From a virus (taxonomy: Duplodnaviria > Caudoviricetes), in the IMG/VR virus record IMGVR_UViG_3300046011_009473, positions 1 through 51,261 of that record: a DNA stretch of 51,261 nt. One strand, given 5' to 3'. Below are positions 1 to 48,400 of the stretch, in pieces. The first letter of the stretch is position 1, and each line of letters opens with the position of its first letter. The notes under the pieces were generated by a model that had not been told where the DNA came from, searched no databases, and saw nothing but the letters and a program-made list of their open reading frames with translations. The position numbers and the translations under genes are program-made.

Positions 1-606
1 ATAATATTTTGGAAAATTAATATCGATTGCTTCAAGTTCTTCAATAGTTGTACAAGTATTTATCTCCACTTCTTTATCGTTCGCGTAAGCAACGTATGAC
101 GTGCCGCGATCTGCAAGATGAGAAGAAATATTTTGTGCAACCGCTTGATCTAAAATAACGTAACCCTCGCGTCTATTTTGACCTTCGATAATTGTGCAGC
201 TATATTTTATAATGCTGCCCAATGATGCGCCAAAGATAATCGTGTTAGGCTCGGTTAATTGAATGCCAGTAGCTTCAACACTAAATTCAAAATAAACTTT
301 GTTTTCTTCGATTTCAGGCTTATCCCATTCGTAAGCTTTGCAAGCGGCGTAAGGTTTTCCCAAAGCTACGTTTCGATTGGCTTTTAATTGGGTTATTTTA
401 GTTGTTTTGGCTTGCTCTAACAAAACACTAGTAGGCGTTACATATTCTTGATAAACTCCGTCAATAACACACATTTGCTTTGAGCTGTCTTGTGCGTCAT
501 CTTCAATTTCAATAAATGGTTCAGGGATAGAAGCATAATTGATTGAATCAGGATAATAACCTTTTACTAAAGTTGTTTCTGTATCGTAATGTACTTTTAT
601 TGTCAT
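1..606 (-). CDS. Tail fibre assembly chaperone (Tfa/DUF4376-like); runs off the window start; absent from the ORF track
   Basis: Hand translation from ATG at 606: MTIKVHYDTETTLVKGYYPDSINYASIPEPFIEIE...AKTTKITQLKANRN...EINTCTTIEELEAIDINFPKY, no stop in window. Lies directly after the tail fibre. Confidence 0.8.
   Translation of the reverse strand, partial: MTIKVHYDTETTLVKGYYPDSINYASIPEPFIEIEDDAQDSSKQMCVIDGVYQEYVTPTSVLLEQAKTTKITQLKANRNVALGKPYAACKAYEWDKPEIEENKVYFEFSVEATGIQLTEPNTIIFGASLGSIIKYSCTIIEGQNRREGYVILDQAVAQNISSHLADRGTSYVAYANDKEVEINTCTTIEELEAIDINFPKYY
2..413. repeat. 412-bp direct repeat, copy 1 (copy 2 at 40436..40847)
   Basis: Manual alignment at offset 40434 gives 12 mismatches, all between 121 and 316; 2..120 and 317..413 are identical. 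Confidence 0.97.
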
Positions 607-624
607 TTTTTGTAGTGAGTTTAA

Positions 625-1719
625 TTAATATCCGATTGCAAGCCAAGCAGCTCCTGTATTCCCAGCGTTTCCCAAAGATCCATTATTTATTCTTAATACG
701 GAATTTGAGACTTTTGTTGTTCCAAGCGCATTGCCATCACCAGAATAAGCCGCTGCTGCTGGGCAACAAATTGCGATTAAAAAAGCTGTTGGAAAGGTGA
801 CGGGTAACGTAATATCTACGCTGCCACCAGCAGGGACAGCAGACGTGTAATTTCCAAGTTGCACAATCAATTTTTCAAAAATTCCATTACGTAATACTGG
901 AATATAAATCGCTCCCGGATTAGCCAGAGTTGAATTTGAAAATAGTGAAGCTATTGCCGCTGCTGTGGCTGCTCTTGTAGTATCAGTTGCAGCGGCTAAT
1001 TCTGCATTTGTTAATAACTCAACAAGACCAGCTAAAGAAGTAGATGCACTTTGCGAACCTACTACTGGGATATTCCCTGAAGAGTTTCCGACAACTCTTG
1101 CGGCTAAATCCGTAAGAGTGGCATTTAAAGCTTGCACACCTAAAAGGGTACGCATTGCCGCAGCAGTTGCTGTATTTACTAACTCCAGCCCAAGGGCGCT
1201 AAAAGCCGCCGCAGAAATATCCATTAAATTTCTCACTTCTAAATTATCTCCTGCGGCATTAACAATAACGGCTTTGCCTGCGTTTGCTAAATTGACGGGT
1301 ATTTCTAACTCCGTAAGTTGAGAACTTTTTGGTAAAAGAATTGAACGTGCAATATTCTCTTTGAGTTGAAGAGCCAAAAGCGTGAGTTTATCTAAAGCTT
1401 GTTCAAATGATTTGCCAGAAAATTGAGACGTACCTTGGTTTTGAATAGATGTGTTTTGCTCAAAATCCATATTTCGTAAAAGCGAAATCCCAAACCCCGC
1501 AGTTACCGCGTTGACCAGCGTGATATGTCCCAAACCAGTATCCGCATCGAGGCTGACAGCATAGTCTGTAGTAAGTGTTAAAACTTCTTCGACTCCGTTG
1601 AGATTCAAAACGATGACTTGGAGGTCTTGCTCATCGAGAATTTTAAAGGTGAAAGCATACTCTACGGCAGAGCCGTTAGAGACGTAATCATTTCTTGAAT
1701 TTTCATTTGTTACAGTCAT
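625..1719 (-). CDS. Tail fibre protein with T7 gp17-like N-terminal anchor
   Basis: N-terminus YVSNGSAVEYAFTFKILDEQDLQV...LTTDYAVS...FEQALDKLTLL. C-terminal VQLG...ITLPVTFPTA...WLAIGY tip. Followed by a chaperone. Confidence 0.88.
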   Translation of the reverse strand: MTVTNENSRNDYVSNGSAVEYAFTFKILDEQDLQVIVLNLNGVEEVLTLTTDYAVSLDADTGLGHITLVNAVTAGFGISLLRNMDFEQNTSIQNQGTSQFSGKSFEQALDKLTLLALQLKENIARSILLPKSSQLTELEIPVNLANAGKAVIVNAAGDNLEVRNLMDISAAAFSALGLELVNTATAAAMRTLLGVQALNATLTDLAARVVGNSSGNIPVVGSQSASTSLAGLVELLTNAELAAATDTTRAATAAAIASLFSNSTLANPGAIYIPVLRNGIFEKLIVQLGNYTSAVPAGGSVDITLPVTFPTAFLIAICCPAAAAYSGDGNALGTTKVSNSVLRINNGSLGNAGNTGAAWLAIGY

Positions 1720-19857: not shown

Positions 19858-20010
19858 ATACAAATTAAACCAGTAAAAACTCTTGAGTGTAGCCAAGTTT
19901 TAAAACTGATGGATGAAGACTACAAATACCAAGAAGCGCTACAAATAATTCTTTTTATCACAAACCGCGAAAAAAAAGAATTAGAAGAGGAGTTAGGCTA
20001 TTATATTTAA
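19858..20010 (+). CDS. Small hypothetical early protein; start uncertain (ATA at 19858 or ATG at 19909)
   Basis: Hand translation (I)QIKPVKTLECSQVLKLMDEDYKYQEALQIILFITNREKKELEEELGYYI*; fills the intergenic gap. Confidence 0.45.
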   Translation: MQIKPVKTLECSQVLKLMDEDYKYQEALQIILFITNREKKELEEELGYYI

Positions 20011-20094
20011 GAGCCTTGCTAATACCCCCGCCACCGCGCGGGGTTACAATGAAGGGCTTTTCTCTTCAAATAATAACAAAAAAAACTTTAAAAT

Positions 20095-20696: not shown

Positions 20697-20972
20697 ATGA
20701 AAATCTTAAGGAATACACTAAAAAGACATTTTGAAGAAAAAAAACGGTTTAACCGCGTTTTAGATCAAAATTTTGACGATTTAAACCCGCCGGATAGAAA
20801 CTGGATATTTACCGCGGGGTTAGTTCTATTAATTGCTTACGGGGCTTGCCTTTTGGCAATCGCTTTCGCTTTGGACTCACAAGCCAGCAAGTTTGACAAG
20901 AAACTAGAGCAATTAGAGCAATTAGAGCAGCAAGAATTTTATAAAATAATTAAAAGCAATTACAAAATTTAA
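20697..20972 (+). CDS. Hypothetical single-pass membrane protein
   Basis: Hydrophobic WIFTAGLVLLIAYGACLLAIAFAL; LEQ x3 tandem; same leader as the gene at 19565. Confidence 0.7.
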   Translation: MKILRNTLKRHFEEKKRFNRVLDQNFDDLNPPDRNWIFTAGLVLLIAYGACLLAIAFALDSQASKFDKKLEQLEQLEQQEFYKIIKSNYKI

Positions 20973-20988
20973 AATAGGAACGGTAAAA

Positions 20989-21588
20989 ATGAAAAATAAA
21001 ATACTTAAAAACACGTTGGCCGCCCTAAAACAACAATATGAAGCTAAGCTATTGGAGGCGGCTGAAACTTTTGAAAACGGCACACTTTTAAAATTGGAAA
21101 TTGAGATTGACGAATTCCCAAGCAACCCGCGAGATGATACCAACCTTGGAACGATAATTTGCACCCACAAACGCTATAATTTAGGCGATCAATTGCCGTT
21201 TTCAATTAAAGATTGCGAAAGTTGGGAGGGGGCGCGCGAAAAAATAAAAAGCCAGCACGCGGGAAAAGAGCTGCTGATTTTGCCCGTATACATGATGGAT
21301 CATGGCGGGCTAAGCCTTTCAACAAAACCTTTTGATTGCCCTTGGGACAGCGGGCAAATAGGTTTTATTTATGCTAAAAAAGGCGAGGAGGGTTTGACAG
21401 ATCAAGAATTGCAAAATTCATTAGAAAGTGAAATTAAGAGTTACTCAAAATATATTGAAGGGGAAGTGTACGAATGGCGAATAATTAATACAATTTCAGG
21501 CGAATGTTTGGACAGTTGCGGGGGTTTTTTAAGGCATAGTGAAGCGCAAAAAGACGGGGAAGCCGCCTTAAAATCATTTATTGATTAA
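20989..21588 (+). CDS. Hypothetical early protein (WDSGQ-motif family)
   Basis: NPRDDTNLGTIIC.HKRYNLGD, LPVYMMDHGGLSLST, PWDSGQIGFIY, DSCGGF. Confidence 0.8.
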   Translation: MKNKILKNTLAALKQQYEAKLLEAAETFENGTLLKLEIEIDEFPSNPRDDTNLGTIICTHKRYNLGDQLPFSIKDCESWEGAREKIKSQHAGKELLILPVYMMDHGGLSLSTKPFDCPWDSGQIGFIYAKKGEEGLTDQELQNSLESEIKSYSKYIEGEVYEWRIINTISGECLDSCGGFLRHSEAQKDGEAALKSFID

Positions 21589-21676
21589 ACCCGCTCAAAT
21601 AACCGCCAGCAGTGGCGCCGCTGGCGGTTAAAAGAGCTGGTTTAATCAGTTCGTCTCAACTAAAAAACTTTAAAAA
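21582..21676 (+). repeat. Structured intergenic repeat, copy 1 (long hairpin)
   Basis: Outer stem TGATTAAACC/GGTTTAATCA; inner 11-bp stem TAACCGCCAGC/GCTGGCGGTTA; loop AGTGGCGCC. Confidence 0.9.
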
Positions 21677-21688
21677 TAAAAAAATTTT

Positions 21689-22657
21689 ATGTCAATTTAC
21701 ACAAAAAGGAAAACGCACAAGAGCATTCGAGAACTTAGCCACGCTTGGGCGTACGCGAACCAAGGCGAGGGTGGAACCGCTGCCCATGGCAGTTACCACT
21801 ATACGGGCGGCGAGCTTTTCAGCTATCGAGAATTGATAGCGAAAAAAATCAAGTCAAAAAAAGGCGCTGAAGCTTGCCTTTTTAACGAAGCTAAGTACTC
21901 AAAAACGACGACAAAACACCAAAGCCTCGCCCGAATGGCGTTTAGCGGGGTGGCAATCGTAGGGCTTTGGTGCGGGCACGGCTGCCGTTCTGATGGTTTT
22001 GGAAACCCCTTTACAACCCAAAACATTATTCAAAGTCACCTTTCAAAATTGGAAAGTGAATCTCAAAATTTAGCAAAAGCAAAAAAGGAAAGCACAAGGG
22101 GGGGTTATAAATTGGAAATTGTGTCAATTTCAAATAATTTAAAACGCTTGATTGATTATGATTTAATAAAGAAAGCAGAATTACCGCTTCAGCTAAAAAA
22201 GCTTTTAAAAATTGAAATTAACCCGGCAGGGCTTGAAATTTTAGAGAAAGCGGCGGCCAAAGACTTGAAGAAAAAACTCAAAGCTAAAAAAGCCAAGATC
22301 TTAGCTGAAATTCAAGATTTTAGAACTTTTAAAAAAAGTTGGCTTTCTCAAGATGCAAAAAGTTTCAATAAGAATGGTGACCTCATAAGATACAATTTAA
22401 AAGAAAATACTATAGAAACCAGCCAAGGCATAACCGTGCCAATTTTAGAAGCACTTCTATTGTACAAAGTGTCTAAATCTCATCACGAGAAAAAATTCGC
22501 TGCTAACTATTCAAATAAAATGATGTTGGATGGTAAGTTTAAAGTAGATCAAATTGACGAGAAAGGCAATGCTAAAGTAGGTTGCCATTTTTTTAATTTT
22601 GCAGAAATTGAGCGTTGCTATAAAGAAGAATATCTAAAACTAAAGGGCAGTGATTAA
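21689..22657 (+). CDS. Hypothetical basic early protein
   Basis: 322 aa; LFSY...IA...YSKTTTKHQS and C-terminal IETSQG...KVGCH motifs; flanked by the two hairpin repeats. Confidence 0.8.
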   Translation: MSIYTKRKTHKSIRELSHAWAYANQGEGGTAAHGSYHYTGGELFSYRELIAKKIKSKKGAEACLFNEAKYSKTTTKHQSLARMAFSGVAIVGLWCGHGCRSDGFGNPFTTQNIIQSHLSKLESESQNLAKAKKESTRGGYKLEIVSISNNLKRLIDYDLIKKAELPLQLKKLLKIEINPAGLEILEKAAAKDLKKKLKAKKAKILAEIQDFRTFKKSWLSQDAKSFNKNGDLIRYNLKENTIETSQGITVPILEALLLYKVSKSHHEKKFAANYSNKMMLDGKFKVDQIDEKGNAKVGCHFFNFAEIERCYKEEYLKLKGSD

Positions 22658-22747
22658 ACCATCTTAAATAGCTGCTAGCAGTGGCGCCGCTAGCAGTTAA
22701 AAGAGCTGGTTCAGTCAGTTCATCTTAACGTTAAAAAACTTTAAAAA
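22651..22747 (+). repeat. Structured intergenic repeat, copy 2
   Basis: TGATTAAACC...TAGCTGCTAGC-AGTGGCGCC-GCTAGCAGTTA...GGTTCAGTCA. Confidence 0.9.
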
Positions 22748-22751
22748 AAAT

Positions 22752-22904
22752 ATGGATACTAAAAAAAGGATAAACCAAATTTTAAAAGATCATGGCGCGA
22801 GCCTTGAAAGGCAAATTTCGCAAGGTTACACTCGCGGAATTTTTTTAGGCTTTTTTTGTTGGCGTGCCACTAAAAACGGGCTTGAAATTGAATTATTAAA
22901 TTAA
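22752..22904 (+). CDS. Small hypothetical protein (50 aa, absent from the ORF track)
   Basis: MDTKKRINQILKDHGASLERQISQGYTRGIFLGFFCWRATKNGLEIELLN*; same AAAAACTTTAAAA leader as other early genes. Confidence 0.6.
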   Translation: MDTKKRINQILKDHGASLERQISQGYTRGIFLGFFCWRATKNGLEIELLN

Positions 22905-23130: not shown

Positions 23131-23448
23131 ATGTCTTACGAAACTCAACTTCTATTTTACGCACGGCGAACGCTCGCGGAATTGTACGCGTTCGCCGTGC
23201 AGCATGATAACCAGCCGCTAAAAACCCAACTCGCGGAACTGCTGGCCTTTGCTCCAGAAGATCAATTAAAAGACATTGCCAAGCGTTTAAACTATCAAAA
23301 CAACCCTCAAGAATTTATTTCCAAAAGCCATGAGGCTTGGCGGATAAGTGATTTTAACCCCTCCAAAACTGCCCCCAAAAAATCAGCGAGTAAAAGCCCC
23401 TCAAAAGCCGCCCCAAAATTAACATTCCTCCGGAAAAATTTCAGGTAA
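23131..23448 (+). CDS. Hypothetical protein
   Basis: 105-aa ORF in operon context with a Lys/Ser/Pro-rich tail. Confidence 0.65.
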   Translation: MSYETQLLFYARRTLAELYAFAVQHDNQPLKTQLAELLAFAPEDQLKDIAKRLNYQNNPQEFISKSHEAWRISDFNPSKTAPKKSASKSPSKAAPKLTFLRKNFR

Positions 23449-23462
23449 TTAAAAAAAAGATA

Positions 23463-23492
23463 TTGACTTGATAGAAGCTCGCGTCTCATAAT
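23463..23492 (+). promoter_or_regulatory. Sigma70-type promoter for the HTH/primase genes
   Basis: TTGACT, 18 nt, CATAAT, with an upstream A-tract. Confidence 0.6.
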
Positions 23493-23535
23493 GTTGCATT
23501 CTGTTTTTTCTAAAATCTAAAAACTAAGCCAAACA

Positions 23536-23766
23536 ATGCAAAAAACTAAGTCAAAATACATGGGGCTTTTGGAGGCCTCAAAATACATGGGCAATTTACA
23601 CCCCGTCTATTTGCGCGAACTCGCGCGAACTGGCGGAATCCCAGCCGTTAAATTCTCAACTGCACCAAAAGCACAATGGTATTTTTTGCCAGAAGACATC
23701 GATAGATGGGCAAAAACCAATGGGCAAATCGCGAGACTTAATTCCTTAACTAAAAAATCTAAATAA
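23536..23766 (+). CDS. Helix-turn-helix protein (excisionase/MerR-like)
   Basis: YMGLLEASKYMG...YLRELARTGGIPAVK...WYFLPEDIDRW. Confidence 0.75.
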   Translation: MQKTKSKYMGLLEASKYMGNLHPVYLRELARTGGIPAVKFSTAPKAQWYFLPEDIDRWAKTNGQIARLNSLTKKSK

Positions 23767-25937
23767 TGCAAAACATTAAATTGCTGAAAGTAGCCCAAAA
23801 CTATATAGATTTTGGTTTTACGATAATCCCGCTAAAAGGTAAAATACCGACCCAAAGCAACTGGCAAAAAACCATGTGGCAACCACAACTCGATGAAAGT
23901 TGCAAAAGCTGCGAGTCCCTCGGGTTTTTGATACCCGACGACATCGTGGTGATTGATATCGACAATCACACCGAAGAAAAAAAAGGATGGACAGCTTTAG
24001 ACCATTTGACCAAAGAGTACGACTACGATTTCGTGGCTAATGCTGGGGTTATTGTAGAGACCGCAAACGGCGGGCTGCATCTTTATTATAAAAATTCGCT
24101 TAAAGAAGCTAAAATCATTAACGGATTTGCAGATTTAAAATACGAAGGGCTGGAATTCAAAGGCAAAGGTCGCCAAGTGCTTATCCCAGAATCCACTTTA
24201 CCAAATGGCAACCGATACTATTTTGACATCGTTAGAAACGATTTTAACCAGATTAAAAACTTGCCTGAAAATCTTTTAATGGATATAATCCGCCCCAAAG
24301 GTAATTTAAAAGATGAGCAAATTACCAGTAACGCTACAGACAGCCCGATAGATGTCTCAAGATTTCAAAAATATTTAGCAAACCAACAAATGGTGCGTAG
24401 CGGCAATAGAAATAACACGCTCTACGTGATGTCTGCGCATGCTAAAAATCTAGGATTATCACCAAAAACAATGGCGAAACCCCTTCTTGAATGGAATAAT
24501 AAAAACGTTTTCCCGCCAGTAGAAGCAAAAGAGCTGGCAGAAATTATTACCAACGCTTATCACTATTCGGCAAGCGGTGCTGGCGTCTTAAGCGTCAATT
24601 CAATTTTTAATGAAAACGCAGCCGTTGAAAACGTAGTAAGTCTTTCGCCTAAAGAAGCCAAGGCGCAACTCGCAGAATTAGATGAATTTAAAGATTGGCG
24701 GCAAACGTTAATTATGTCCAATGGCAAGATCTCCCGTGCCAATTTTGGCACAAGAAATACTGAAATTTTTTTGGAAAATTTAGAAGAACTTCGCGGTAAG
24801 CTGGCATTAAACCAGTTCACTTCCGACACGGTGTGGCGCGAGCTGCCAACGTGGATTCATAAGGTAGATATTGAAGCCCGACAACTGACGCCGAACGAGG
24901 TCGTAATCACTGACGACGACGTAATCCGGATTCGCGATATTCTAAATAATTACGGATTTGACCCTAGCGGCGGGCAGATTATTGAAGCTGCGAGAAATGT
25001 TTCTTTGAAGCGACCATTTCACCCAGTAAAAGAGATATTGGAGTCACTGCCTAAATGGGATGGGAAAAATAGATTAGAAAGATTTTTTCCCGATTTGTGT
25101 GGTACACAAGACTCAATCTACACGCGCGAAGTTGGCAAAAAAATTTTTGTGGCTGTAGTTTCAAGAATATATAAACCCGGATGTAAATTTGACTATCTAC
25201 CGATTTTTGTAGGCGAACAAGGCATTGGTAAGTCCACTTTAATTAAGCTGATGGCTTTAAAACCTGCTTGGTTTTCAGACTCGTTGGGCGATATTGAAAA
25301 TAAAGATGTGATATTGCAAATGCGATCAAAATTGATTATTGAGAATGGCGAACTCACAATGTTCAACAAAAAAGAAATCAATAGTCAAAAAGCTTTCTTG
25401 TCCCGTTCTACAGATAGGGCAAGACTGCCGTATGACCGCTTGCCGCGTGATTTGCCGCGTCAGTGCCTTATAATCTCGTCAACAAATGAAAGTAAATTTT
25501 TAGTAGATGAAACTGGAGCGCGCAGGATGTGGCCAATTGAAATGAGGGCGATCAAGCTTAAAGAAGTGGCGAGCCAAATACCGCAGCTGTACGCAGAAGC
25601 TTTAGTTTTGTATGCAAGAGGCGAAGAAATTTTCTTGGATAATGAAGAAGCAGCTCTTCAAGCGGAAACAGAACAAGCCTCGCGGTATAAAAATGACGAG
25701 TGGCAAGATAAAATCGCCGAATGGCTCCACGCGTCTAATTTAGAATTTGTACGCATATCGGATATTTGGGGTAAGTGCTTTGGATTTGACATTCGCTATT
25801 TAGACCCAAAAGCCCAAAAAAGGATTGGCGCTATTTTACGAGTTTTGAAATGGACAGTTTCAAGCCGCAGAGTCGATGGAGTACCAACCCACGGCTACGT
25901 TAGACCAATCTTAACTTTAACTTTAGAAAATTTATGA
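23766..25937 (+). CDS. Bifunctional primase-polymerase with PriCT domain and VirE/VapE-type P-loop helicase
   Basis: IIPLKGKIP, VIDID, TANGGLHLYY, GNRNNTLY, FHPVKE, PKWDG, PGCKFD, GEQGIGKST, DETGARRMWPI. Confidence 0.9.
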   Translation: MQNIKLLKVAQNYIDFGFTIIPLKGKIPTQSNWQKTMWQPQLDESCKSCESLGFLIPDDIVVIDIDNHTEEKKGWTALDHLTKEYDYDFVANAGVIVETANGGLHLYYKNSLKEAKIINGFADLKYEGLEFKGKGRQVLIPESTLPNGNRYYFDIVRNDFNQIKNLPENLLMDIIRPKGNLKDEQITSNATDSPIDVSRFQKYLANQQMVRSGNRNNTLYVMSAHAKNLGLSPKTMAKPLLEWNNKNVFPPVEAKELAEIITNAYHYSASGAGVLSVNSIFNENAAVENVVSLSPKEAKAQLAELDEFKDWRQTLIMSNGKISRANFGTRNTEIFLENLEELRGKLALNQFTSDTVWRELPTWIHKVDIEARQLTPNEVVITDDDVIRIRDILNNYGFDPSGGQIIEAARNVSLKRPFHPVKEILESLPKWDGKNRLERFFPDLCGTQDSIYTREVGKKIFVAVVSRIYKPGCKFDYLPIFVGEQGIGKSTLIKLMALKPAWFSDSLGDIENKDVILQMRSKLIIENGELTMFNKKEINSQKAFLSRSTDRARLPYDRLPRDLPRQCLIISSTNESKFLVDETGARRMWPIEMRAIKLKEVASQIPQLYAEALVLYARGEEIFLDNEEAALQAETEQASRYKNDEWQDKIAEWLHASNLEFVRISDIWGKCFGFDIRYLDPKAQKRIGAILRVLKWTVSSRRVDGVPTHGYVRPILTLTLENL

Positions 25938-26113
25938 AACTTTGTAAGAAAACGCTAGAATTGATTTTGATCTTTATTTTTTGGATGAGCTTTTGTGTCG
26001 CCGTTTGGAAAATCCGAAGTGCGATTGAAGACCGAAAACCTACAGTTAAAGGCTCTCGCCCAATAAGCGAAGACACCATCTACTATTTTGACGGCGCCGA
26101 AGAAAAAATATAA
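25934..26113 (+). CDS. Small membrane protein (59 aa, absent from the ORF track)
   Basis: ATGA overlap with the primase stop; MKLCKKTLELILIFIFWMSFCVAVWKIRSAIEDRKPTVKGSRPISEDTIYYFDGAEEKI*. Confidence 0.65.
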   Translation: MKLCKKTLELILIFIFWMSFCVAVWKIRSAIEDRKPTVKGSRPISEDTIYYFDGAEEKI

Positions 26114-26146
26114 GAGAATTATTTTAAAAAATATTAAAATAAACTA

Positions 26147-26175
26147 TTGACAAATAAAATCAGGTAAATCAATAT
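26147..26175 (+). promoter_or_regulatory. Sigma70-type promoter upstream of the structured non-coding array
   Basis: TTGACA, 17 nt, CAATAT, with an AT-rich upstream tract. Confidence 0.6.
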
Positions 26176-26183
26176 GCTCTACC

Positions 26184-26900
26184 GAAAGACATCTTCAACT
26201 AATGTTTTTCAAAAAGAAGAGGTCACTAACAGACTGAAAATTTTCAATACTTATTTAGAAAAAACAGAAAATGCTTCAGTATGTTAGCCCTCTTCGATAG
26301 AATATTTTTAGAGCAAAATCGGATATATGGCATATATTGAGAACGTCCTCTAGCCAAGGGTCAACAGTAGGGTGAAAACCCCTTACGGTTTTGCTGTAAA
26401 AATATTTTTAGATGGTAGTTTTGCTAAAGGGTTTGCACCTTTTTAACTGACGCAACAGGCAAAATTACTTTCGGAAAATATTTTTCCGCCGCGTATTGGT
26501 TTTTGTAAAGTATTTTCCAATGCGCGGTTTTAACATGTGCCGCCGAAGTCCCTAGAGGGAGCTTTGAAGGTTTGGGAGTGCAATTCTTCTAGGCGGGGAG
26601 TAAATAGCGGTCTTGGGTAGAGTCGCCCTCATGAAGCGATTTGAGTAATTCTCCTCGGCTAGTTCGATTCTAGCAACCGCTACCAAGTCAGCCTGACTAG
26701 AGAATAAGGCGCGAGTCTCGTTAGAGACAAACTTAACGCAAGTTGTACGAAGCCAGAACATTGATTTATTGCGGCGTTTAGCCGTGTTCTGGCTTCGTTT
26801 TAATCTCTTTCCAAGTCAGATTAACCGCAGCCCATTGTAAATTGGGAACAACTTTTTGAAGAGTTTGTTTAGCAAAGAGTTAGTCTGGCGTGGTGAGGTA
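26184..26900 (+). ncRNA. Putative highly structured ncRNA array (about 9 consecutive stem-loop or multibranch elements)
   Basis: No credible ORF. Successive inverted repeats whose imperfections are mostly G-U-compatible on the plus strand; see findings. Confidence 0.65.
26606..26685 (+). tRNA. Atypical tRNA-like element: CAT anticodon, no D-arm, long variable region, encoded CCA
   Basis: Acceptor AGCGGT(C)/(A)ACCGCT-A-CCA; T-arm GCTAG-TTCGATT-CTAGC; anticodon arm TCGC(C)-CTCATGA-(A)GCGA; only 10 nt where the D-arm should be. Confidence 0.6.
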
Positions 26901-26939
26901 TTAATTAAAAAACTATAACACACTGAAAACACAGAAAAC

Positions 26940-28493
26940 ATGGAAATCTTTTTTAACCATACTAGAAACCGATACGAGCTAAGCTGCTCTTTTGAAGAAA
27001 GAGACCAAGCTAAATGTTTGGGCTTTAAGTGGTGCCCCGAATTTAACGTGTGGTTTGCACGCGACTGGTACGCAGCTTGGAAAGCTTATTTAAAAGTTGA
27101 CACGGCACACAGAAAAAAACCGGAATTAGAAAAATTTTCCCGCAATCTTGAGCTTTCTTACTCTACATCTTTTGGGATTTTTGAAAAGAAACATCTTAAG
27201 GACTTTCAAAACGCGGGGGTTGAAGAGCTACTTTGCCGCAAAGGTTTTAATCTTCTGGCTGACGAACAAGGCTTGGGCAAAACAATCCAAGTTTTAGAAT
27301 TTGCAAAATTTGCCATTAAAAACAGCCAAACCCGATTTGTAAAACCAAATAAAGTTCTGGTGATTGCACCATCCTCGCTTAAAATAAATTGGCAACGCGA
27401 AGCTAAAAAATTTGATTCAGAAGATATTTTTAAAATCGAAATATTAAGAGGCACTAAAGCTAAAATAGAAAATCCCGACACAAACTTGGTAATTGTAAAT
27501 TATGACCTTTTAAGCTCGGGCATCGTATTTGACCAGCTCGAGAAATATAATGCAGACTTAGTTTTAGGCGACGAAATCCATTTAACTAAAAGCCCTAACG
27601 CCGCACGGACTAAGCGGACTTTTTCAATTGCAAAAAAGGCTAAAAAATTCATCGCAATTTCGGGTACACCGATTCCAAATCGCCCAATAGAAATCTTCCC
27701 ACTGCTAAAAACTTTTTGCCCAGAAGCCCTTGGGCATTACGCAGATCAACGCCGCTTTGAGTACCATTTCTGCGCTGGGTTCCAAGATAAATGGGGTTTT
27801 AACAATTCCGGTGCATCAAATCTTGAGGAGCTTGGTGAAAGATTACGCGCGACGTGCATGATTCGTCGGCTTAAAAAAGACGTTCTTGGAAATAATAAAA
27901 TGCCACCACAAATTTTAGCTTTTGAAGCGGATGCCACCACTATGGCGTTGACCCTGAAAGAACACGAATTGGCTGCAGAATTTTTGAAAAAAAATAAAGA
28001 GATACCCAACATCGGCGAGATCGCAGAAATTCGACAAGAGCTGGCAATGCGTAAATTACCACTCGCAATTCAGTTTATAAAAGATTTGCTTTTATGTAAT
28101 AATAAAGTGGTAGTTTTTGCACACCATCGCGCAGTTATTGCGGAGCTTTTGTCAAACTTTGCTGAAAATTCAGTAGCTATTATGGGCGGGTTGTCTGAAA
28201 AACAGAAACAAAACGCAGTAGATTGTTTTCAAAACGACCCATCGATTCAAGTTTTCATTGGGCAAATACAGGCTGCGGGTGTGGGGATAACTTTGACCGC
28301 CGCGAGCCAAGTGGTTTTTGTGGAAAGCGCGTGGTCACCCGGAGATATTGACCAATGCGTTGACCGCTGCGATCGTATCGGACAGACTAAATGGGTACAA
28401 GCTAGATTCTTAGTTATTGAAGACAGTTTAGAGGAGCATATGTTGAAAGTTGCTTTCGACAAGGCAAAAAATATTAACAAAATAATGGGGTAA
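26940..28493 (+). CDS. SNF2/HARP-like SF2 helicase
   Basis: LLADEQGLGKT, APSSLKINW, DEIH, SGTP, RRLKKDVL, AAGVGITLT, DRCDRIGQ. Confidence 0.92.
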   Translation: MEIFFNHTRNRYELSCSFEERDQAKCLGFKWCPEFNVWFARDWYAAWKAYLKVDTAHRKKPELEKFSRNLELSYSTSFGIFEKKHLKDFQNAGVEELLCRKGFNLLADEQGLGKTIQVLEFAKFAIKNSQTRFVKPNKVLVIAPSSLKINWQREAKKFDSEDIFKIEILRGTKAKIENPDTNLVIVNYDLLSSGIVFDQLEKYNADLVLGDEIHLTKSPNAARTKRTFSIAKKAKKFIAISGTPIPNRPIEIFPLLKTFCPEALGHYADQRRFEYHFCAGFQDKWGFNNSGASNLEELGERLRATCMIRRLKKDVLGNNKMPPQILAFEADATTMALTLKEHELAAEFLKKNKEIPNIGEIAEIRQELAMRKLPLAIQFIKDLLLCNNKVVVFAHHRAVIAELLSNFAENSVAIMGGLSEKQKQNAVDCFQNDPSIQVFIGQIQAAGVGITLTAASQVVFVESAWSPGDIDQCVDRCDRIGQTKWVQARFLVIEDSLEEHMLKVAFDKAKNINKIMG

Positions 28494-28791: not shown

Positions 28792-29454
28792 ATGATTAAA
28801 AATTCAGTATCGATTTTGGATATAGCTAATTTATCTCAAACCGAAAAACAAAACCATACCATTGGTCTTTTAACTTCAATTGACCTTTCTCTTAAACAAC
28901 TTTTGGTTTGGGCGCCGCTTAGTGTTGGTCGCGCTGCCGTTGATAATCAATACCGTATGGAAATCGGGGAAGATTATGATAAGGATTTTGGTAAAGATCT
29001 AAGAGATCTAAACGCGTCTGCGGTAATGTCAGCAGATGAAGTAGTTCAAGCCGCAGAAAAAATTGCAGCTGCTAAACCAAGATCCCCAAGAAAAGCGGCT
29101 GCACCTGTTGCAGCTATCGCCCCTGTAGCTGCACCAGCAGTTGCACCAGAAGAAACAACTTTGGCTATCGCCCCTGTAACTGCACCAGCAGTTGCACCAG
29201 CAGTTGCACCAGCAGTTGCACCAGCAGTTGCACTGGAGATGACAATCGACCAAGTTAGAAACGCTGCCACTAAGTTCATCGCGGCGATAACTGCTAGAGG
29301 TGAAATTGGCTCCGAGGTTTTTTCAAAACTATTGAAAGCCCAAGGGGTTTCGGTCATTTCAGCTTTAGATAAGTCTAAATACCCAGCATTAGTGGCTGAA
29401 ATGGTAAAAATTGTACCAGCAATTGCGACTGAAGTATTTGACCCGCTTAAATAG
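28792..29454 (+). CDS. Hypothetical replication-module protein with an Ala/Pro linker (ATG at 28792 preferred over GTG at 28762)
   Basis: APAV repeats, then TIDQVRNAA...LLKAQGVSVISALDKSKY, a pattern usually found next to DUF2800 genes. Confidence 0.75.
   Translation: MIKNSVSILDIANLSQTEKQNHTIGLLTSIDLSLKQLLVWAPLSVGRAAVDNQYRMEIGEDYDKDFGKDLRDLNASAVMSADEVVQAAEKIAAAKPRSPRKAAAPVAAIAPVAAPAVAPEETTLAIAPVTAPAVAPAVAPAVAPAVALEMTIDQVRNAATKFIAAITARGEIGSEVFSKLLKAQGVSVISALDKSKYPALVAEMVKIVPAIATEVFDPLK
29181..29233. repeat. 12-bp tandem repeat (TGCACCAGCAGT)x4 encoding APAV
   Basis: Read directly; a ~37-bp block is also duplicated at ~29114 and ~29164. Confidence 0.95.
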
Positions 29455-29463
29455 CAACTTTTT

Positions 29464-29493
29464 TCCAAAGGTGTCGAATTCGACACCTTTGGA
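29464..29493. repeat. Perfect 30-bp palindrome with no loop
   Basis: TCCAAAGGTGTCGAA|TTCGACACCTTTGGA. Confidence 0.97.
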
Positions 29494-29529
29494 TTTAAAA
29501 AAATCCTTTAATCTTAAAAGCTAAAAAAT

Positions 29530-42464: not shown

Positions 42465-45400
42465 CTATTTTTTAGCTGGTTTTAAAATAAAATCTACAGG
42501 TGCAGGTTCGTTTCCTTCCCTTTCTTCTTTTAAAGCTTTTAAGAAAATATCAATTTGCGCTCCACCGCCCATTGTAAAGATTGCAGAAGTTTCATTTATC
42601 CCTTGCATAACTTTGATTAAATCAACTTCTTCATCCTCACTTACGGCATTAACAGCCTGTACGCCTAATTTACTTACTCCTCCACCAACTATAGATATAC
42701 CTTTAAACCCAGAAGGATAATAAGATTCACGTCCATAATTTAAACCAGAATAAATTTGGCTTGCTACAGGAATTGGAGAAAGAAGCGATCCAGCAACTAA
42801 ATTTGCATAGTGCAAGGTTTTATCTTCCTCATCATCTTCGCCTCTACCAGAAAGCAAATTAGAAATTCCCTCTCTTAAAAATTCAGTTAAAATTGCATCT
42901 ACAGCAAATAATAAAGCAAAATCAGAAATAAACTTAGCAGTATCTTTTGGTTTTTTGAAATTTGTTTGGCGATAACTTCCAGTAAGCAAATTGAGCTTTA
43001 CGTTAGCATAGTTTCCAAAAATTGTAAAAGCTTTTACAAGAGCTGAATCATCTCTCTGGATTGCTGAAAGAGATTGTTTATAAGAAGAGCCTTGGGTTTC
43101 AATTACTAATCTGTCTGCAAGTTCTACTGCCTTGGCATCGTCACCTTTAAAATCTTTTAATCCTTTATAATAAGCGCCGTACCAAGTTGGCAAATCGGCT
43201 AACATTTGCATTTTGGTTGTAGCTAGGAAAGCAAACTTGGTGATTTCTTTGCGAAGTTTCCCTGATTTTTGCAAGCGGTCAATAACTTCGTAAATATCGC
43301 GAGTCATTGTCTTAGAGCGATCTTCTAAGATTTTAGATTTTGCAAAAGCTAATTTAGCAGCCTTATTAATTGAGACAGGATTACCATTTCCTAAAGCTTT
43401 CCAAACGCCCAAGCCCATATTTTTATAACCAATCTTAACAATTGATTGTAAAAGACCAGTAGGTTGAATTATTGCTGTAGCTAATTTAAAACCCATTGTC
43501 CAAGTTACAGTTATATCTCTTGATAAATTAGCAGCCTTAGCAATAAAACCTTCTTGCGTGATAGTGCGACCATACATATCATAAACCCAAGATTGTAACT
43601 GTTTATATTCAGCAATTCCAATTTTCTTAACTAAATTTGTTTTTAACCTTCTGTTATTTATAATTCTGTAAGCATTCCATGCAGCAGGTTTCATGGCAAT
43701 ATCATTTATAATTTGGGTTAAATGCTTTGAAAGAGGGTTTAAATCTAAAACAATTTTTTTATTTACTTTTTGTTCAGCCCTTTCTTTTGTAAAAGATTTA
43801 TGGAAATTTACTTTGTCAAAACCAGTTCCAAATAAAGTTTGTTTTAAGTCTTCTGCTGTGTCTGATTTAAAGTTTGCTTCTGCCGTGTACGCCAAAGGAT
43901 AATAACCACCTTTTAAAGAAACTTCGTAACCATCTTTTGAAACAACTTTAAGAGGTATTGAACTTTGTTTTTTAGGAGCAATTCCAAAAAGTTTTTTCTC
44001 GGTTGCTTCAATTGCTGACCAATAACTATTAATCAAATCCCAAATATCCTGAACAAACTCTAATTCATTTTTGTTTAAAGAGGAAATAATATCTATAACT
44101 TGAGCATCGGAATAATTAAACCCATCCCTTACGCGAGTTCTGTTAATTTCATTTCCCCAATTCAAAGCAAATGCTAGGACTGCTTTTTTGGAATAACTCT
44201 TGCCAACTGAATCAAAATAAGTTCTTTTATCGGAAATCTTATAGCCGCCAAAATGTTTATTAAAAATAGCATCAAGTTTTTTATAACTCTCATCTGCCAT
44301 TTTATTTTTATTTAATTCGGCATCGTTTAAATCTTTTTCAAAAAGCTGGTAAAATTCCCCAAGATTTTTCTCGCCATCAATCTTAAGAGTAGTCTGGCTA
44401 GTTTTAATCAAAGAAGAAGCATAAGAATTAAAAGCTTTAACCAGTTTTTCTTTTTCGGTTGGATCTTCTATTTCAGGTTTATCTTTTTTGATGTTAGTGT
44501 TTGCTTGCTCAATAATTCTGTCAACAATCGAATTTAATTCTTGCTTTTTGCCATTAACTTCCAAGATATTTATATTGCGCCCAACAGTAACAAGATTTTG
44601 TATTGCATCGTCAAAGGTTCTGAATTGATCGGTTGTAAGTGATCGAATATTATCTTTATCTTGAAATTCTGCTAATTCAGGAAATTCAACCAATCCCAAA
44701 ACGCCAGAATCAGTTTGCTCTTGCTTCCAAGTTTCCAAATCGGCAACATTAGTTTTTTGATAATCGTTGCCTTTAGGAGCTAAGTTAAAATCTTGAAGAA
44801 GATTAACAGCTTTTAATCTAAAATCCTCATCAATTGTAACTTTGCCAGCTTTAGGTTTTTTCTTAATTCTAGTATAGCTTTTTAAAGCTTTTTGAACTTC
44901 ATTTTTAATTGCAAGGCTTTCTCTAAAAAGATAATGGTTTAAGAGTTGTTTTTTCTTCCATTCAACAGCTTTAGCATAGTCCTTTTGTCCAAGTGCTTTG
45001 CCAGCTTCTCTGGCTGCCTTAACCTCATTTAAATAAAAAGTATTGGTGTCAGTGGCATCTTTGATTTGTTTAGTTGCAATAATTTCTTTGGCTTTTTGTT
45101 TGTAAGCTTCTTTAGTTTCAACAAAAGTTTTAACTTTTCTATTGGCTGCATTTAGCTCGTAAAGAATTTTGTTTGCACGCGCTTCATTTTCAGAAGCATC
45201 AAGAGCTTCGTTTTCAATAGTTCCATCATAAAGCATATCACCATAACGCCTAACCATTTCAGCGTCAGTAGCCTTCTTTAATTCCTCTTTAAAGTTTGAA
45301 ACATTTGCGATTGCATAAAGCATTTGTCCAGCATCATTAAAGCCAAATTCTTCAGCCACCATATCCACGGGAACGCCGTCTTTGGCAAGAATGTCAGCAG

Positions 45401-48400
45401 GAAGGTATTTTAAAAACTCTGTGTCGTAATTGTTTTTAATATCTTCGCGGCTTAGTTTATAACCTGTAGTGCCTTCAACTGGCTCTTCGCCAAGTAATTG
45501 ACCAGTTTTCAAAAAATGAACAAGGCGAAAAGTTTTATCTTGATTCATTTCTGATTCAACTTCTTTCTTTACCGCCGCCCTTTCTTCTTTGTAGAATTTC
45601 TTGTTCTCAATTTCCTTTTGCTTCAAAGCCTTAGTCAAAAGTTTTTCTTTAGCTTTCTCATTGGCAGTGTCATTAAGTTTTTGATAATCCTTCTTTTCAG
45701 CAGCCGTAAGCAATTCTAAAATTTGATCGTCAGAACGAAATATTGGATTGTTTTTTAATGATTCAATTGCTTCATCAGTTGCAAACATTCGATCAAATAC
45801 ATCGCGCACTTCATTAGTGAGCTTTACATTAAGTTCAGAAACGTCTTTGTAGATTCTAATTAGCCAAGCTTTAAATCTTCTAAAAGCATCTCTAAGGGCT
45901 ATTGAAGGGGCTTTTCCTTCGCGTAGGTAAGCCTCAAAGCCACGAGCGAATTTCTCATGCGCTTCTGTGGTAATGTTTCCATCTTTAATTCCTAGCCAGT
46001 TTTCAAGAATTTTCCAATCGTTTTTGATTTGTTCAGAAACATTCGGAACGGCAGCGATGTCTCGGTTGATTTGCAAGAACACATGTCCAAGTTCGTGGAG
46101 AACTGTAGATTTGTTTTTGCCTTCAAATAGGGTGATAATTGGCTTTTGTCCAATGAATTGAGTTTGTCCTCTTGGGTTTGATTCATTTTGGAATAATGGC
46201 AATCCTTGTTTTTGGATTGACTCGCGCATTGCGGGTGTAATTTCTAAACTCCAAACATTGCCAACTTTTTTAATGTTTGAGGTTTCAACCTTGCCGCCGA
46301 ACTTCTTAGCCAGCTTATTTACCATTGTTGGCACAATTTTGTCGTAGAAAGCTTTCATGCCTTCGCCGCCAACTTTTAGATCAACTCCCGATAATTCAAT
46401 CCTTGTTTCTTTACTTTCTATAACTTTCTTAGCTATATCTTTTCCTACAATTCCTTCTAAATCTTCTGGCTTATTTCTTAATTGATCGACAATTGCTTCA
46501 TCATTTTTATATCCAATTAATGATATAGTTCCATCTTCGTTTTTCTTAAAATCTAGCTTATCTAGCTGCTTGCTTAAGTCATATCTCTCAGCCTGTTGCT
46601 CACCAGTTGTCCAAGCTACTTTATCAAAATTATTTTCAACCGCCCAAAGTAAGGCGCGTTTAAAGGCTAGTTCGTTCCAAGTGGTTTTAAAGGGGGCGTC
46701 TGGAACTCTCATGTAAGAGTCGTAACCATCTTTATATCTTTCTAGAAGCTGTTCTGAAGCTTTAGCCTCTATCAAATCTACATAAGATACTTGACCAAAA
46801 GGCTTGTCTATTCCAATCGCCTTTATTTCTTCCTCTATTTTCTTAAGTAATTCTGCGTCTTTATATCCTTTCTTCCTTCCCTCTTGGTGCCAATCGCTTT
46901 GCAATTCTTCCACAAACATAACACGAGCACCGTCTTTGTCAGTGCGTTCGTTAAAACGAATGTGGGCTAAGATGTTTGGTTCGTCGAAGTGAGTAGTGCG
47001 ATAATTAGTTCTATTGTCAGTTGCAGCTCCGGGTGGTAGACCAAGACTGTTTCTTAAACCTCTTAGATTAACATTCCTTCCTAATTCTTTACCATCCTGT
47101 TTTGCAACCCATTCGCCACTTTCTTCATCTTTAAAAAGCTCGGGAAGAGTAGTTGATTTTTCTGGCAAAGTCAGCAACAACTCACGATAATTCTCGCCGC
47201 CTGCTAGGGTGTATTTGGAGAATTTGGTTTCTGCTGGTTTACCTCTTTTTTTCATCCACTCATCTTGGTCTTCGACCCTCCAATCATCAAATTGTTTTCC
47301 ATTATTTTTTTCTTCTAATTGTTTATAAAGGTCTTGTAATTGTTTAGGATAATCACCCTTAACAACCTCCTCAACCTCAATCTTATTCGCTTTCAAATAA
47401 TCAAGAATCTGCTCTTTAGTAACGCTGCCTTTCTGTTCTTTTATCCAGTCCTCAATTCCAGTCCAATCAAGCTCTTCTTGCTTAACGCCTTTTTGAGTTA
47501 GGTTTTTGATTATACCAGCCCATTGTTCGGGTGAGCCTTTGCCTTGAGGTAAATCGGTAATTTGTTTTTCTAAAGAAGAATAAAAGGTTGGGGTGGTTTG
47601 GTAATATGTTTTGACAATATCAATTGCAGCGTCATCAAAAACTACGTAATTATGCTGACCTTCTTTTTTCTTACGACTATTTCTATCAAAATATTTTATG
47701 CCATTTATTCCATTGGCATGAAGAAACTTAGAAGCTCCTTCATCGCTACGAAAATAATCTTTAAGACTACTTGGAAGCCCGTCATCTTCAGCGATTTTTT
47801 TGAGAAGTTGATAAAGCTCATTTCCGCTTAATTCATAAATATCATCCGCATTCCAATCGCCAAGATAATCTATCATATCTTCTTGAGGAATCTGATCAAA
47901 TGCTTTTTTTACGGCTTCTTGTATGTTAGGCGGCTGCTTACTCAACATATTGTCCCAATCCAACATCGTATCAGCTTCAGGGATATTTACTTCGTAAAGT
48001 TGCCCTTCTTTTGCCCTTTGATATATCTCCACAATTCCTAAATCGTGATTCAGGTTTGATATTTCGTTTTCCAACTTCTCTAAATCAGCTTTTAATTCTT
48101 TTTTTTCTTTTGAAAAAAATCCAATTTTAGAAAGATCGTTTTTTATATTTGATTTTTCAGAAGTTTTTTCGTCCAGTTTCTTTTTTAGGATTTTAATAAC
48201 TTCGGGAGCTGCATCTTTTAAATCTTTTCCAGTTCTATACTTTAAAGATATTTCAGGTGTTAGTAAAAAAATTCCTTTACTAAGGTCGACTGATAATTTT
48301 TTTCTATACCATTCTGCAATTTCCTTGTCACCAGCAAAATAAAGCCCCCATCCATAAGCCTGCGCCCCTTCTCCACCTCCAATATTGTCTAACGTAAATT

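Follow-up and report, generated by a model that had tools for sequence, protein, structure and literature searches.

The complete 51,261-bp genome of a podovirus-like member of the Caudoviricetes (IMG/VR record IMGVR_UViG_3300046011_009473; this whole stretch is called the window below) has its largest gap poor in open reading frames (ORFs), 0.8 kb in length, at positions 26114 to 26939, between a primase-helicase gene and a gene for an SNF2-family helicase. On balance, this gap appears to be an RNA island that is transcribed by the host, with an antisense head, exchangeable cassettes, and a conserved tail before the SNF2 gene. The tract is structured and strand biased, its helices covary among relatives, and the loop of one hairpin has a conserved complementarity to the leader of the primase operon. 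Cassettes in its middle are polymorphic and have been exchanged with an unrelated phage. The transcription and processing of the island, and each function proposed for it here, are deduced from these features.

In the proposed mechanism, host RNA polymerase would transcribe the island rightward from positions 26147 to 26175, and the transcript would fold into independent modules (Table 1). The conserved head would comprise M1, at the predicted 5' end, and M2, whose stem would be free to vary and whose A-rich loop would target the operon leader. M2 is a putative antisense regulator of the replication-initiator operon, with its target 2.7 kb upstream, and its logic would be that of the P4 CI RNA, the P1 c4 RNA, and plasmid copy-control RNAs. 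In the variable middle, slots bounded by AT-rich palindromes (AAAATATTTTT) would take exchangeable structured-RNA cassettes, one of which would be a noncanonical tRNA-Met derivative that moves between unrelated phages. The bracketing palindromes could serve as cleavage sites for RNase E or RNase III, as recombination joints, or as both. The likeliest role of the tRNA-like element would be that of a handle or mimic for enzymes that recognize tRNA shape (RNase P, the CCA-adding enzyme, or tRNA-directed nucleases). The conserved tail would consist of the terminator-like M11 and the three-way junction M12, ahead of the genes from SNF2 to DNA polymerase.

Folding, strand bias, and coding status of the tract

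The + strand of positions 26170 to 26900 folded at -245 kcal/mol (z = -7.59), a stability reached by 0 of 20 shuffled sequences; the - strand of the same region folded at -206.6 kcal/mol (z = -6.60). An earlier note, made from the letters of this DNA alone, had described ten stacked structured elements here. A span-limited fold of the + strand placed all ten at or near the same positions, as a row of local modules in which no conserved long-range pairing was seen. Compared to 200 shuffles per element on each strand, seven of the ten were more stable on the + strand (z ≤ -2.8), and the CCGCC/GGCGG element, the tRNA-like element, and the small hairpins were indistinct from shuffles by energy alone. 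Strong folding on the - strand persisted only for near-perfect palindromes, and five of the seven significant modules were clearly more stable on the + than on the - strand. In a genome-internal control (150-nt windows with regression on GC content; about 1023 windows), 8 of the 25 top-ranked + strand windows started within positions 26151 to 26751, compared to 3 of 25 for the - strand. The same note had held that imperfections in the helices were mostly compatible with G-U pairing on the + strand, and a strand-neutral count agreed: among 25 single non-Watson-Crick positions between Watson-Crick pairs, 14 were G·T, 4 were A·C, and 7 were other combinations.

The array stands behind a promoter-like site, as had also been noted. 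Its -35 box is a perfect TTGACA that is kept in both relatives described below, L002 and L004, and the L004 counterpart (TTGACA-17-TAGGAT) was listed by a consensus scan with 10 of 12 matches. The scan omitted the site in the window because its -10 box matches the consensus at only three of six positions.

No ORF of at least 80 amino acids was found in the gap under translation table 11 (longest, 69 amino acids), and four small gap ORFs that were compared with PHROG had no match. Recoded frames of 129 amino acids and 90 to 98 amino acids (TGA as Trp or TAG as Gln) were rejected because they are broken by the indels of 1, 100, and 154 nt that separate the tract from that of L002; recoding was also disfavored by the remaining genome, which reads well under table 11. 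No Rfam family reached its gathering score anywhere in the window, and at an E value of ≤10 over positions 25900 to 27000, the only match other than microRNA (miRNA) and long noncoding RNA (lncRNA) noise was a weak one to tRNA-Sec. Known families thus do not explain the tract, in line with the earlier note. ARAGORN at its default setting called no tRNA gene in the window or in the related loci L002 to L007, and no tmRNA. At a relaxed threshold (80%), it called positions 26315 to 26394 and 26606 to 26685 of the window and 3750 to 3833 of L004.

Complementarity of the M2 loop to the primase-operon leader

The apical loop of M2 (26254 to 26269) is perfectly complementary over 16 nt to a site that starts 6 to 7 nt past the -10 box of the HTH_17-primase operon, so that the target is predicted to be the first 16 nt of the operon mRNA. 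A match of this length was reached by 4 of 2000 shuffled loops and by 10 of 2000 random genomic 35-mers. The target ranked first among 6375 + strand windows in predicted duplex energy (-18.3 kcal/mol).

The collections searched yielded three independent lineages of this locus: the window, L002 (identical to L003 over 8257 nt and counted once), and L004, whose proteins share 70% (primase) and 63% (SNF2) identity with those of the window. In L002, the loop and leader sites are both unchanged (16 of 16 positions) despite a rebuilt M2 stem: beside primase DNA that is 99.5% identical, the arms of M2 are 40% identical and its apical part is 88% identical. A long stem with the same A-rich loop folds at M2 in all three lineages. 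Pairing of the loop with the operon leader would account for its conservation while the stem varies. In L004, the loop AGUUGAAUAAAAACAGAA and the homologous leader CUUCUGUUUUUUCAACU form 10 bp, a bulge, and a further 5 to 6 bp (-17.2 kcal/mol). Three positions of this pair are changed on both sides relative to the window, one of the two sites carries an insertion of 1 to 2 nt, and the leader site is the second best of 1162 windows. The L004 loop on the window leader reached only -10.4 kcal/mol, compared to -17.2 kcal/mol on its cognate leader. M2 therefore shows the exposed-loop-to-leader complementarity, kept in relatives, that defines the antisense class; it belongs to no Rfam family of that class at gathering score, and nothing relevant was found at an E value of ≤10 over positions 25900 to 27000.

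Two 14-nt stretches of the 5' arm and loop of M2 (26227 to 26240 and 26258 to 26271) resemble the start region of SNF2 (26916 to 26938) as collinear matches with 93% identity. One M2 arm could also pair with the SNF2 leader; the likeness is not kept in L002 and is either unexplained or due to chance.

Covariation and a cassette zone in an otherwise collinear genome

A gap of 0.5 to 0.8 kb is kept at this place in all three lineages, with tract z-scores of -9.7 in L002 and -3.7 in L004. Identity between the window and L002 is 99.5% in the primase gene and 99.4% in the small ORF that follows it, 55% in the promoter zone, 84% across M5 and M6, 95% across positions 26686 to 26892 (97% across 26686 to 26812), 68% in the 5' untranslated region of SNF2, and 92% in the SNF2 gene. 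M1 is 92.6% identical in L002 and unrecognizable in L004. M12 precedes SNF2 in all three lineages. Among its 24 pairs, 95.8% of cells are paired and 5 pairs are changed on both sides, a score reached by 1 of 500 shuffles; controls in which the structure was slid scored 0 to 1. Relative to L002, M6 has two pairs changed on both sides and one changed on one side, and one double change falls in the inner hairpin of M11.

Two units of the window are absent from L002. The first, of 100 nt, is M3, which lies between direct repeats of AATATTTTTAGA (12 nt; 26301 to 26312 and 26401 to 26412); the second is the 154-nt insert that holds the tRNA-like element. Their absence marks the middle of the tract as a hypervariable zone of cassettes, which lies inside an otherwise collinear genome. 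The L002 counterpart of M4 is 55% identical and has the same flanks and a stem of its own. The AT-rich palindrome occurs in three to four copies in each of the three lineages, and the copies are dispersed, 75 to 120 nt apart, with cassettes between them. In L004, it stands on both flanks of a tRNA that passes the Rfam threshold (L004:3751 to 3829; 44 versus 29 bits) and that carries 16 nt in its anticodon loop, where the model expects 9.

The earlier note had called positions 26301 to 26406 a cloverleaf. A structured multibranch was found there on the + strand; its tRNA shape appears only in relaxed ARAGORN calls. M3 also matched no tRNA-clan model of Rfam (E ≤ 10), and its 21-nt pattern retrieved no second copy from IMG/VR, which leaves it a doubtful tRNA candidate.

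A tRNA-like element shared with an unrelated phage

Positions 26591 to 26686 form a 96-nt module, consisting of a leader, GGCGGGGAGTAAA, and the tRNA-like element ending in ACCA, that is 95.8% identical in the unrelated phage G001. All four differing positions belong to the variable-arm hairpin, where they make up two compensatory double changes (GAG/CUC to AGG/CCU). Beyond this module, the similarity of G001 (37.7 kb, 34% G+C) to the window is limited to three ORF-level matches and three short patches of DNA (window positions 387 to 637, 20004 to 20084, and 20920 to 20950; 79 to 97% identity). Both phages seem to be supplied from a common gene pool, and so perhaps infect a single group of hosts.

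In G001, the module lies in the middle of a 1.15-kb ORF-free structured region (L021:985 to 2135; G001:C1 about 23224 to 24374) that is also strongly biased to the + strand (-353.8 kcal/mol, versus -278.4 kcal/mol on the - strand), is G rich, and has GAAA-type loops. Its Rfam matches were a weak tRNA-Sec (20.9 bits) and miRNA and lncRNA noise, with none to GOLLD or ROOL. This region may be a large undescribed phage RNA. Its neighbors are genes for T5orf172, an IS1595-type transposase, and an AAA_15/AAA_21 ATPase. The slot that holds the module directly follows a CCCCGC...GCGGGG hairpin and, in relatives of G001, is empty (L026) or filled with a different, 134-nt cassette (L027). The L027 cassette was rejected as a second tRNA-like element: its T-arm-like hairpin was recognized by eye only, and neither Rfam nor relaxed ARAGORN called it.

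The element has a 7-bp acceptor stem (AGCGGUC/AACCGCU) with one C·A mismatch at the last pair, a discriminator A, an encoded CCA, and a canonical T arm (GCUAG-UUCGAUU-CUAGC) with a 5-bp stem and a UUCRANY-type loop; the same T arm occurs in a genuine tRNA-Met of locus L019. There is no D stem-loop; the D arm is replaced by a connector of 8 to 9 nt with U8 and a GG. The anticodon position holds a 6-bp stem with a 9-nt loop, CCUCAUGAA, that contains CAU, in place of the 7-nt loop with U33 of a normal anticodon arm, and the variable arm is a short hairpin. The Rfam tRNA-Sec match to positions 26605 to 26682 scored 27 bits against a threshold of 47, and no other element of the tract matched the tRNA clan at an E value of ≤10. 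An alternative fold of positions 26606 to 26685 from relaxed ARAGORN, with a 3-bp D stem, was rejected because the changes in G001 break it.

A covariance model of the element matched, across 188 kb of the loci compared, the two copies (114.5 bits) and the phage tRNA-Met(CAU) of L019 (35.4 bits; E = 4e-7) and no others; the element is therefore a derivative of a phage tRNA-Met. A match in L020 was rejected as chance, in GC-rich coding DNA. Among 185,579 prokaryote genomes (one per species), none matched a 25-mer of the element; an 18-mer had 19 matches, none of which extended past 20 nt and which were therefore attributed to chance. Loop positions 26629 to 26634 form a 6-nt palindrome, UCAUGA, which could let copies kiss and which may be due to chance.

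Searches for further relatives found none among GenBank phages (blastn). In IMG/VR, the SNF2 and primase sequences of the window and the SNF2 sequence of L004 retrieved only L002 (equal to L003), L004, and three SNF2 homologues (L005 to L007; 27 to 32% identity). L005 and L006 had no Rfam match at an E value of ≤0.1, and the covariance model matched none of L005 to L007. Metagenomes yielded the same contig, an end fragment of 32 residues (L012, 88%) that stops short of the tract, and distant matches of 25 to 27%.

Weighing the proposed RNA island against other explanations

Several observations weigh against the RNA island. The -10 box of its promoter in the window is weak. The duplex energy at the M2 target is no outlier, since A-rich loops meet many U-rich partners: the next + strand site scored -17.7 kcal/mol, and a - strand site scored -18.9 kcal/mol. 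The window loop on the L004 leader reached -16.8 kcal/mol, so that specificity is one-way only, and the helix-turn-helix (HTH) protein could just as well bind the two complementary sites as DNA operators. The tRNA-type fold of the tRNA-like element is not that of minimum energy (-21.3 versus -24.2 kcal/mol, a difference of 2.9 kcal/mol), and covariation supports only its variable-arm hairpin. Covariation statistics are thin overall, because only three independent lineages represent the locus and only two the tRNA-like element.

We consider it unlikely that the tract acts instead as DNA, as a replication origin and/or operator region of the HTH_17-primase module, in which DNA would be unwound or bound at the AT-rich palindromes and the 16-nt inverted pair would be two operators of the HTH protein. 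Such a layout is that of the alpA-pri/rep-ori modules of P4-like satellites, phage-inducible chromosomal islands (PICIs), and Staphylococcus aureus pathogenicity islands (SaPIs). It would fit the position of the tract directly 3' of a Prim-Pol/VapE primase-helicase gene that is itself preceded by an HTH_17 gene, the recurrence of the palindrome in every lineage, and the equal stability of M2 and M11 on both strands. An origin with iterons is not apparent, however: only two-copy direct repeat families were found, and Tandem Repeats Finder reported nothing inside positions 26114 to 26919. The palindromes are spaced apart by cassettes rather than clustered, the strand bias of five of the seven significant modules and the excess of G·T over A·C positions are properties of RNA, and T-loop and CCA features in modules derived from tRNA are meaningful only in RNA. 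Two identical, inverted sites, one of them on a promoter, would suit an autoregulator, but the insertion in one L004 site would be tolerated better by a duplex bulge than by a protein site, and the second site of the window lies exactly within the loop of a hairpin whose stem covaries. Together with the strand bias of the whole tract, these two points are why pairing between RNAs is preferred.

Improbable is the interpretation raised as a possibility in the earlier note, in which the array from end to end would yield decoys, tRNA mimics that titrate anticodon nucleases or further defenses that sense RNA. The variable middle does behave as an accessory hot spot; the tRNA-like cassette has passed between unrelated phages and varies in both lineages, and the G001 island lies near ATPase and transposase genes. 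Phage tRNAs are documented as acting against tRNA-cutting defenses, and changes in anticodon-stem length are described as giving resistance to P2 OLD (PMC12445682). Only one of the ten elements is tRNA derived, however. A decoy role for the element itself gains no support, because a 9-nt loop without a D stem does not copy the anticodon loops that anticodon nucleases reportedly recognize. For the conserved head and tail, different functions are plausible (antisense pair and leader), and no defense partner is known. The observation in the earlier note was thus confirmed and its interpretation supported in part; the antisense relation of M2 to the primase-operon leader and the cassette zone in the middle of the array go beyond it.

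It is very improbable that the tract forms a single large and ornate RNA, about 0.7 kb long, akin to GOLLD and ROOL, and possibly multimeric, with conserved ends and a variable linker able to hold a tRNA. The size, the phage origin, the conserved ends, and the variable middle with its embedded tRNA-like element would agree with such an RNA, and the UCAUGA palindrome or the palindromic separators could make kissing or duplex contacts. Against it stand the absence of any GOLLD or ROOL match (E ≤ 10), the row of local modules in place of long-range pairing, and the gain and loss of whole modules between near-identical genomes.

Equally improbable is nonfunctional debris that illegitimate recombination left at a junction, in the form of hairpins and decayed tRNA genes: the tract does sit where identity to L002 falls from 99.5% to 92%, several elements do not beat shuffles, and default ARAGORN finds no tRNA, but compensatory changes preserve helices, the complementarity of the M2 loop and its target persists in L004 despite protein divergence, the tRNA-like module has kept 96% identity, with compensatory changes, in phages that are unrelated, and the tract is retained in all lineages. 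It is not a decayed ordinary cluster of tRNAs, an alternative that the earlier note had named.

Comparison with known systems

In phage P4, a small stem-loop RNA from an untranslated transcript is described as pairing with the operon leader and controlling the primase-helicase genes (PMC4825925). Like the P4 CI and P1/P7 c4 RNAs, M2 has a hairpin loop complementary to the leader of an HTH-primase operon; unlike them, it has one target site rather than two, located at the very 5' end of the mRNA and 2.7 kb upstream of the regulator. In addition, M2 has no Rfam match at an E value of ≤10, and no lysogeny genes were seen in the phage. Rfam includes a C4 model. In the copy-control pairs CopA/CopT of plasmid R1 and RNA I/RNA II of ColE1, the loop of a stable hairpin pairs with the replication-initiator leader, and stems vary while loop and target covary. 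M2 resembles these in its target, its varying stem, and its covarying loop, whereas CopA and RNA I are encoded on the strand opposite their target and both partners here lie on the same strand, 2.7 kb apart. The M2 loop is 21 nt long, compared to 5 to 7 nt in plasmid copy-control RNAs.

The tRNA region of phage T4 carries two small stable RNAs whose function is not known. As in phage tRNA clusters, the tract is a putatively cotranscribed cluster in the early region, with tRNA-shaped and other structured RNAs and variable content; unlike in those clusters, default ARAGORN calls no tRNA, most modules are not tRNA-like, and the sole tRNA-derived element has neither D stem nor 7-nt anticodon loop. 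Noncanonical anticodon arms are reported for phage tRNAs (PMC12445682). GOLLD and ROOL are described as phage noncoding RNAs that lie close to tRNAs or surround them and whose variable portion can include one (10.1101/2024.12.08.627333). The tract is similar as a phage noncoding stretch of 0.5 to 0.8 kb whose variable part holds a tRNA-like element, and it differs in matching neither model, in giving no evidence of one global fold, and in the gain and loss of its modules.

Origins adjacent to primase genes include the pri-rep-ori regions of SaPIs and PICIs, P4 ori/crr, and the Sfi21-type ori of Streptococcus phages. The tract shares with these a repeat- and hairpin-rich noncoding stretch after a VapE/D5-type primase-helicase gene with a small HTH gene upstream, and it differs from them in having no iterons, strand-biased structure of the RNA type, and tRNA-derived modules. 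The tRNA-like domain of tmRNA and mimics of the YrlA type combine an acceptor and a T arm with a short D-loop substitute and an encoded CCA. The element has the acceptor, the T arm, and the CCA and likewise no D arm; unlike those RNAs, it is 81 nt long, carries both a stem-loop where an anticodon arm would be and a short hairpin in the variable arm, and was not called as tmRNA by ARAGORN, with only the weak tRNA-Sec match in Rfam.

The tract would thereby join two known kinds, phage antisense regulators and tRNA-derived small-RNA clusters, and it is a member of no Rfam family. A bolder reading, which we put forward as possible but rather doubtful, is that it represents an undescribed kind of locus, an RNA cassette island, in which tRNA-derived and other cassettes would be swapped between unrelated phages and anchored to an antisense RNA of the primase operon. 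Slots would be marked by AT-rich palindromes here and by the GGCGGGG hairpin in the G001 lineage. An RNA island of such a kind was not described in the literature searched, and as far as these searches go, cassette exchange between unrelated phages is likewise undescribed. Large surveys of IMG/VR list thousands of unnamed candidate structured RNAs, tRNA-like ones included, and this locus may already stand among them uninterpreted (PMC10690425).

Hardly any RNA genes have been annotated in uncultivated phages. The present locus provides a candidate antisense regulator of a replication-initiator operon whose target can already be named, evidence of folded-RNA modules passing between unrelated phages as protein accessory genes do, and a conserved noncanonical tRNA-Met derivative for which a partner enzyme could be sought. 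An RNA cassette island, if real, would be the RNA counterpart of protein accessory or antidefense hot spots, and screens for phage counterdefense that consider only proteins would miss an RNA layer.

Features of the tract and its setting

The coordinates of the modules and neighboring features are given in Table 1. M6 and M11 are terminator-like only in a loose sense. Compared to the definition of an intrinsic terminator used here (a GC-rich stem, a loop of 3 to 8 nt, and at least 5 U directly after the stem), their loops are 17 and 24 nt long and their U runs have 4 residues. The terminator scan omitted M6 because of its 17-nt loop and listed only the inner subhairpins at 26367 to 26386 and 26780 to 26794. 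Complementarity of the M11 loop to the -10 region of the island was rejected because it is not kept in L002.

Table 1. Positions of the structured modules, regulatory sites, and flanking genes in the window, with z-scores of folding on each strand
Feature	Positions	Strand	Description	z (+)	z (-)
HTH_17-primase operon promoter-like site	23463-23492	+	TTGACT-18-CATAAT; consensus scan 10/12		
Target site	23499-23514	+	16 nt perfectly complementary to M2 apical loop 26254-26269		
HTH_17 ORF	23536-23766	+	Pfam HTH_17, 27.4 bits vs cutoff 27		
Primase-helicase	23766-25937	+	Prim-Pol and VapE-like domains		
59-aa ORF	25934-26113	+	Hydrophobic, judged by eye		
Island promoter-like site	26147-26175	+	-35 TTGACA 26147-26152, 17-nt spacer, -10 CAATAT 26170-26175; read from sequence		
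M1	26184-26210	+	9-bp hairpin, predicted transcript 5' end	-2.8	-0.9
M2	26216-26295	+	Long bulged hairpin	-5.0	-5.6
M3	26299-26408	+	Multibranch closed by 21-nt inverted repeat	-4.6	-3.4
M4	26411-26472	+	Multibranch cassette between AT-rich palindromic separators	-2.9	-0.6
M5 and M6	26473-26528	+	M5, palindrome GGAAAATATTTTTCC; M6, 11- to 12-bp hairpin then UUUU, terminator-like	-4.9 (M6, 26488-26528)	-4.0 (M6, 26488-26528)
154-nt insert	26532-26685	+	Absent from L002; hairpins 26539-26600 and tRNA-like element; blastn break 26531/26686		
CCGCC/GGCGG hairpins	26539-26600	+	Inside 154-nt insert	-1.05	-1.7
tRNA-like element	26605-26685	+	81 nt	-1.6	-1.6
Small hairpins	26715-26728, 26730-26744	+		-0.8 (26686-26746)	-0.9 (26686-26746)
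M11	26747-26798	+	Perfect 14-bp stem, inner hairpin, then UUUU; terminator-like	-7.1	-8.3
M12	26800-26904	+	Three-way junction, 11-bp outer stem, GUAAAU-loop hairpin	-3.6	-1.2
SNF2-family helicase	26940-28493	+	Pfam SNF2-rel_dom, Helicase_C; first gene 3' of tract		

The genome has two gene arms, with structural genes on the - strand and early and replication genes on the + strand (about 19.5 to 35.5 kb). The - arm encodes a T7-type portal, only about 31% identical to the portals of Pelagibacter podophages, a terminase, and a giant protein of 2919 amino acids. The last is a single ORF at positions 42465 to 51224 and makes up 17% of the genome. Further genes of the + arm encode a DUF2800/PD-(D/E)XK nuclease, a gp2.5-like single-strand-binding protein, DNA polymerase A, a nucleotide kinase, and a RuvC-like resolvase; neither a phage RNA polymerase nor a tRNA-handling enzyme was recognized. 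The tract begins 177 nt past the stop codon of the primase-helicase gene and so adjoins the initiator gene. Gene starts mostly have A-rich upstream sequence and no clear Shine-Dalgarno motif, and promoters are sigma-70-like, which may narrow the host.

Downstream of the SNF2 region in L004, a long near-perfect palindromic hairpin (L004:8184 to 8265) matches several miRNA-precursor models on both strands with 48 to 54 bits, all below threshold. In the window, an intergenic element is repeated in the + arm at positions 21588 to 21689, 22657 to 22752, and 29440 to 29500, with a layout of a conserved box, CCCGCTnAAATA, followed by a GC-rich palindromic hairpin, an A-rich run, and the next gene. 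This repeat could be a terminator-plus-promoter unit or a regulator-binding unit. Stem differences between its two full copies are compensatory, and its spots rank among the most stable 150-nt windows on both strands.

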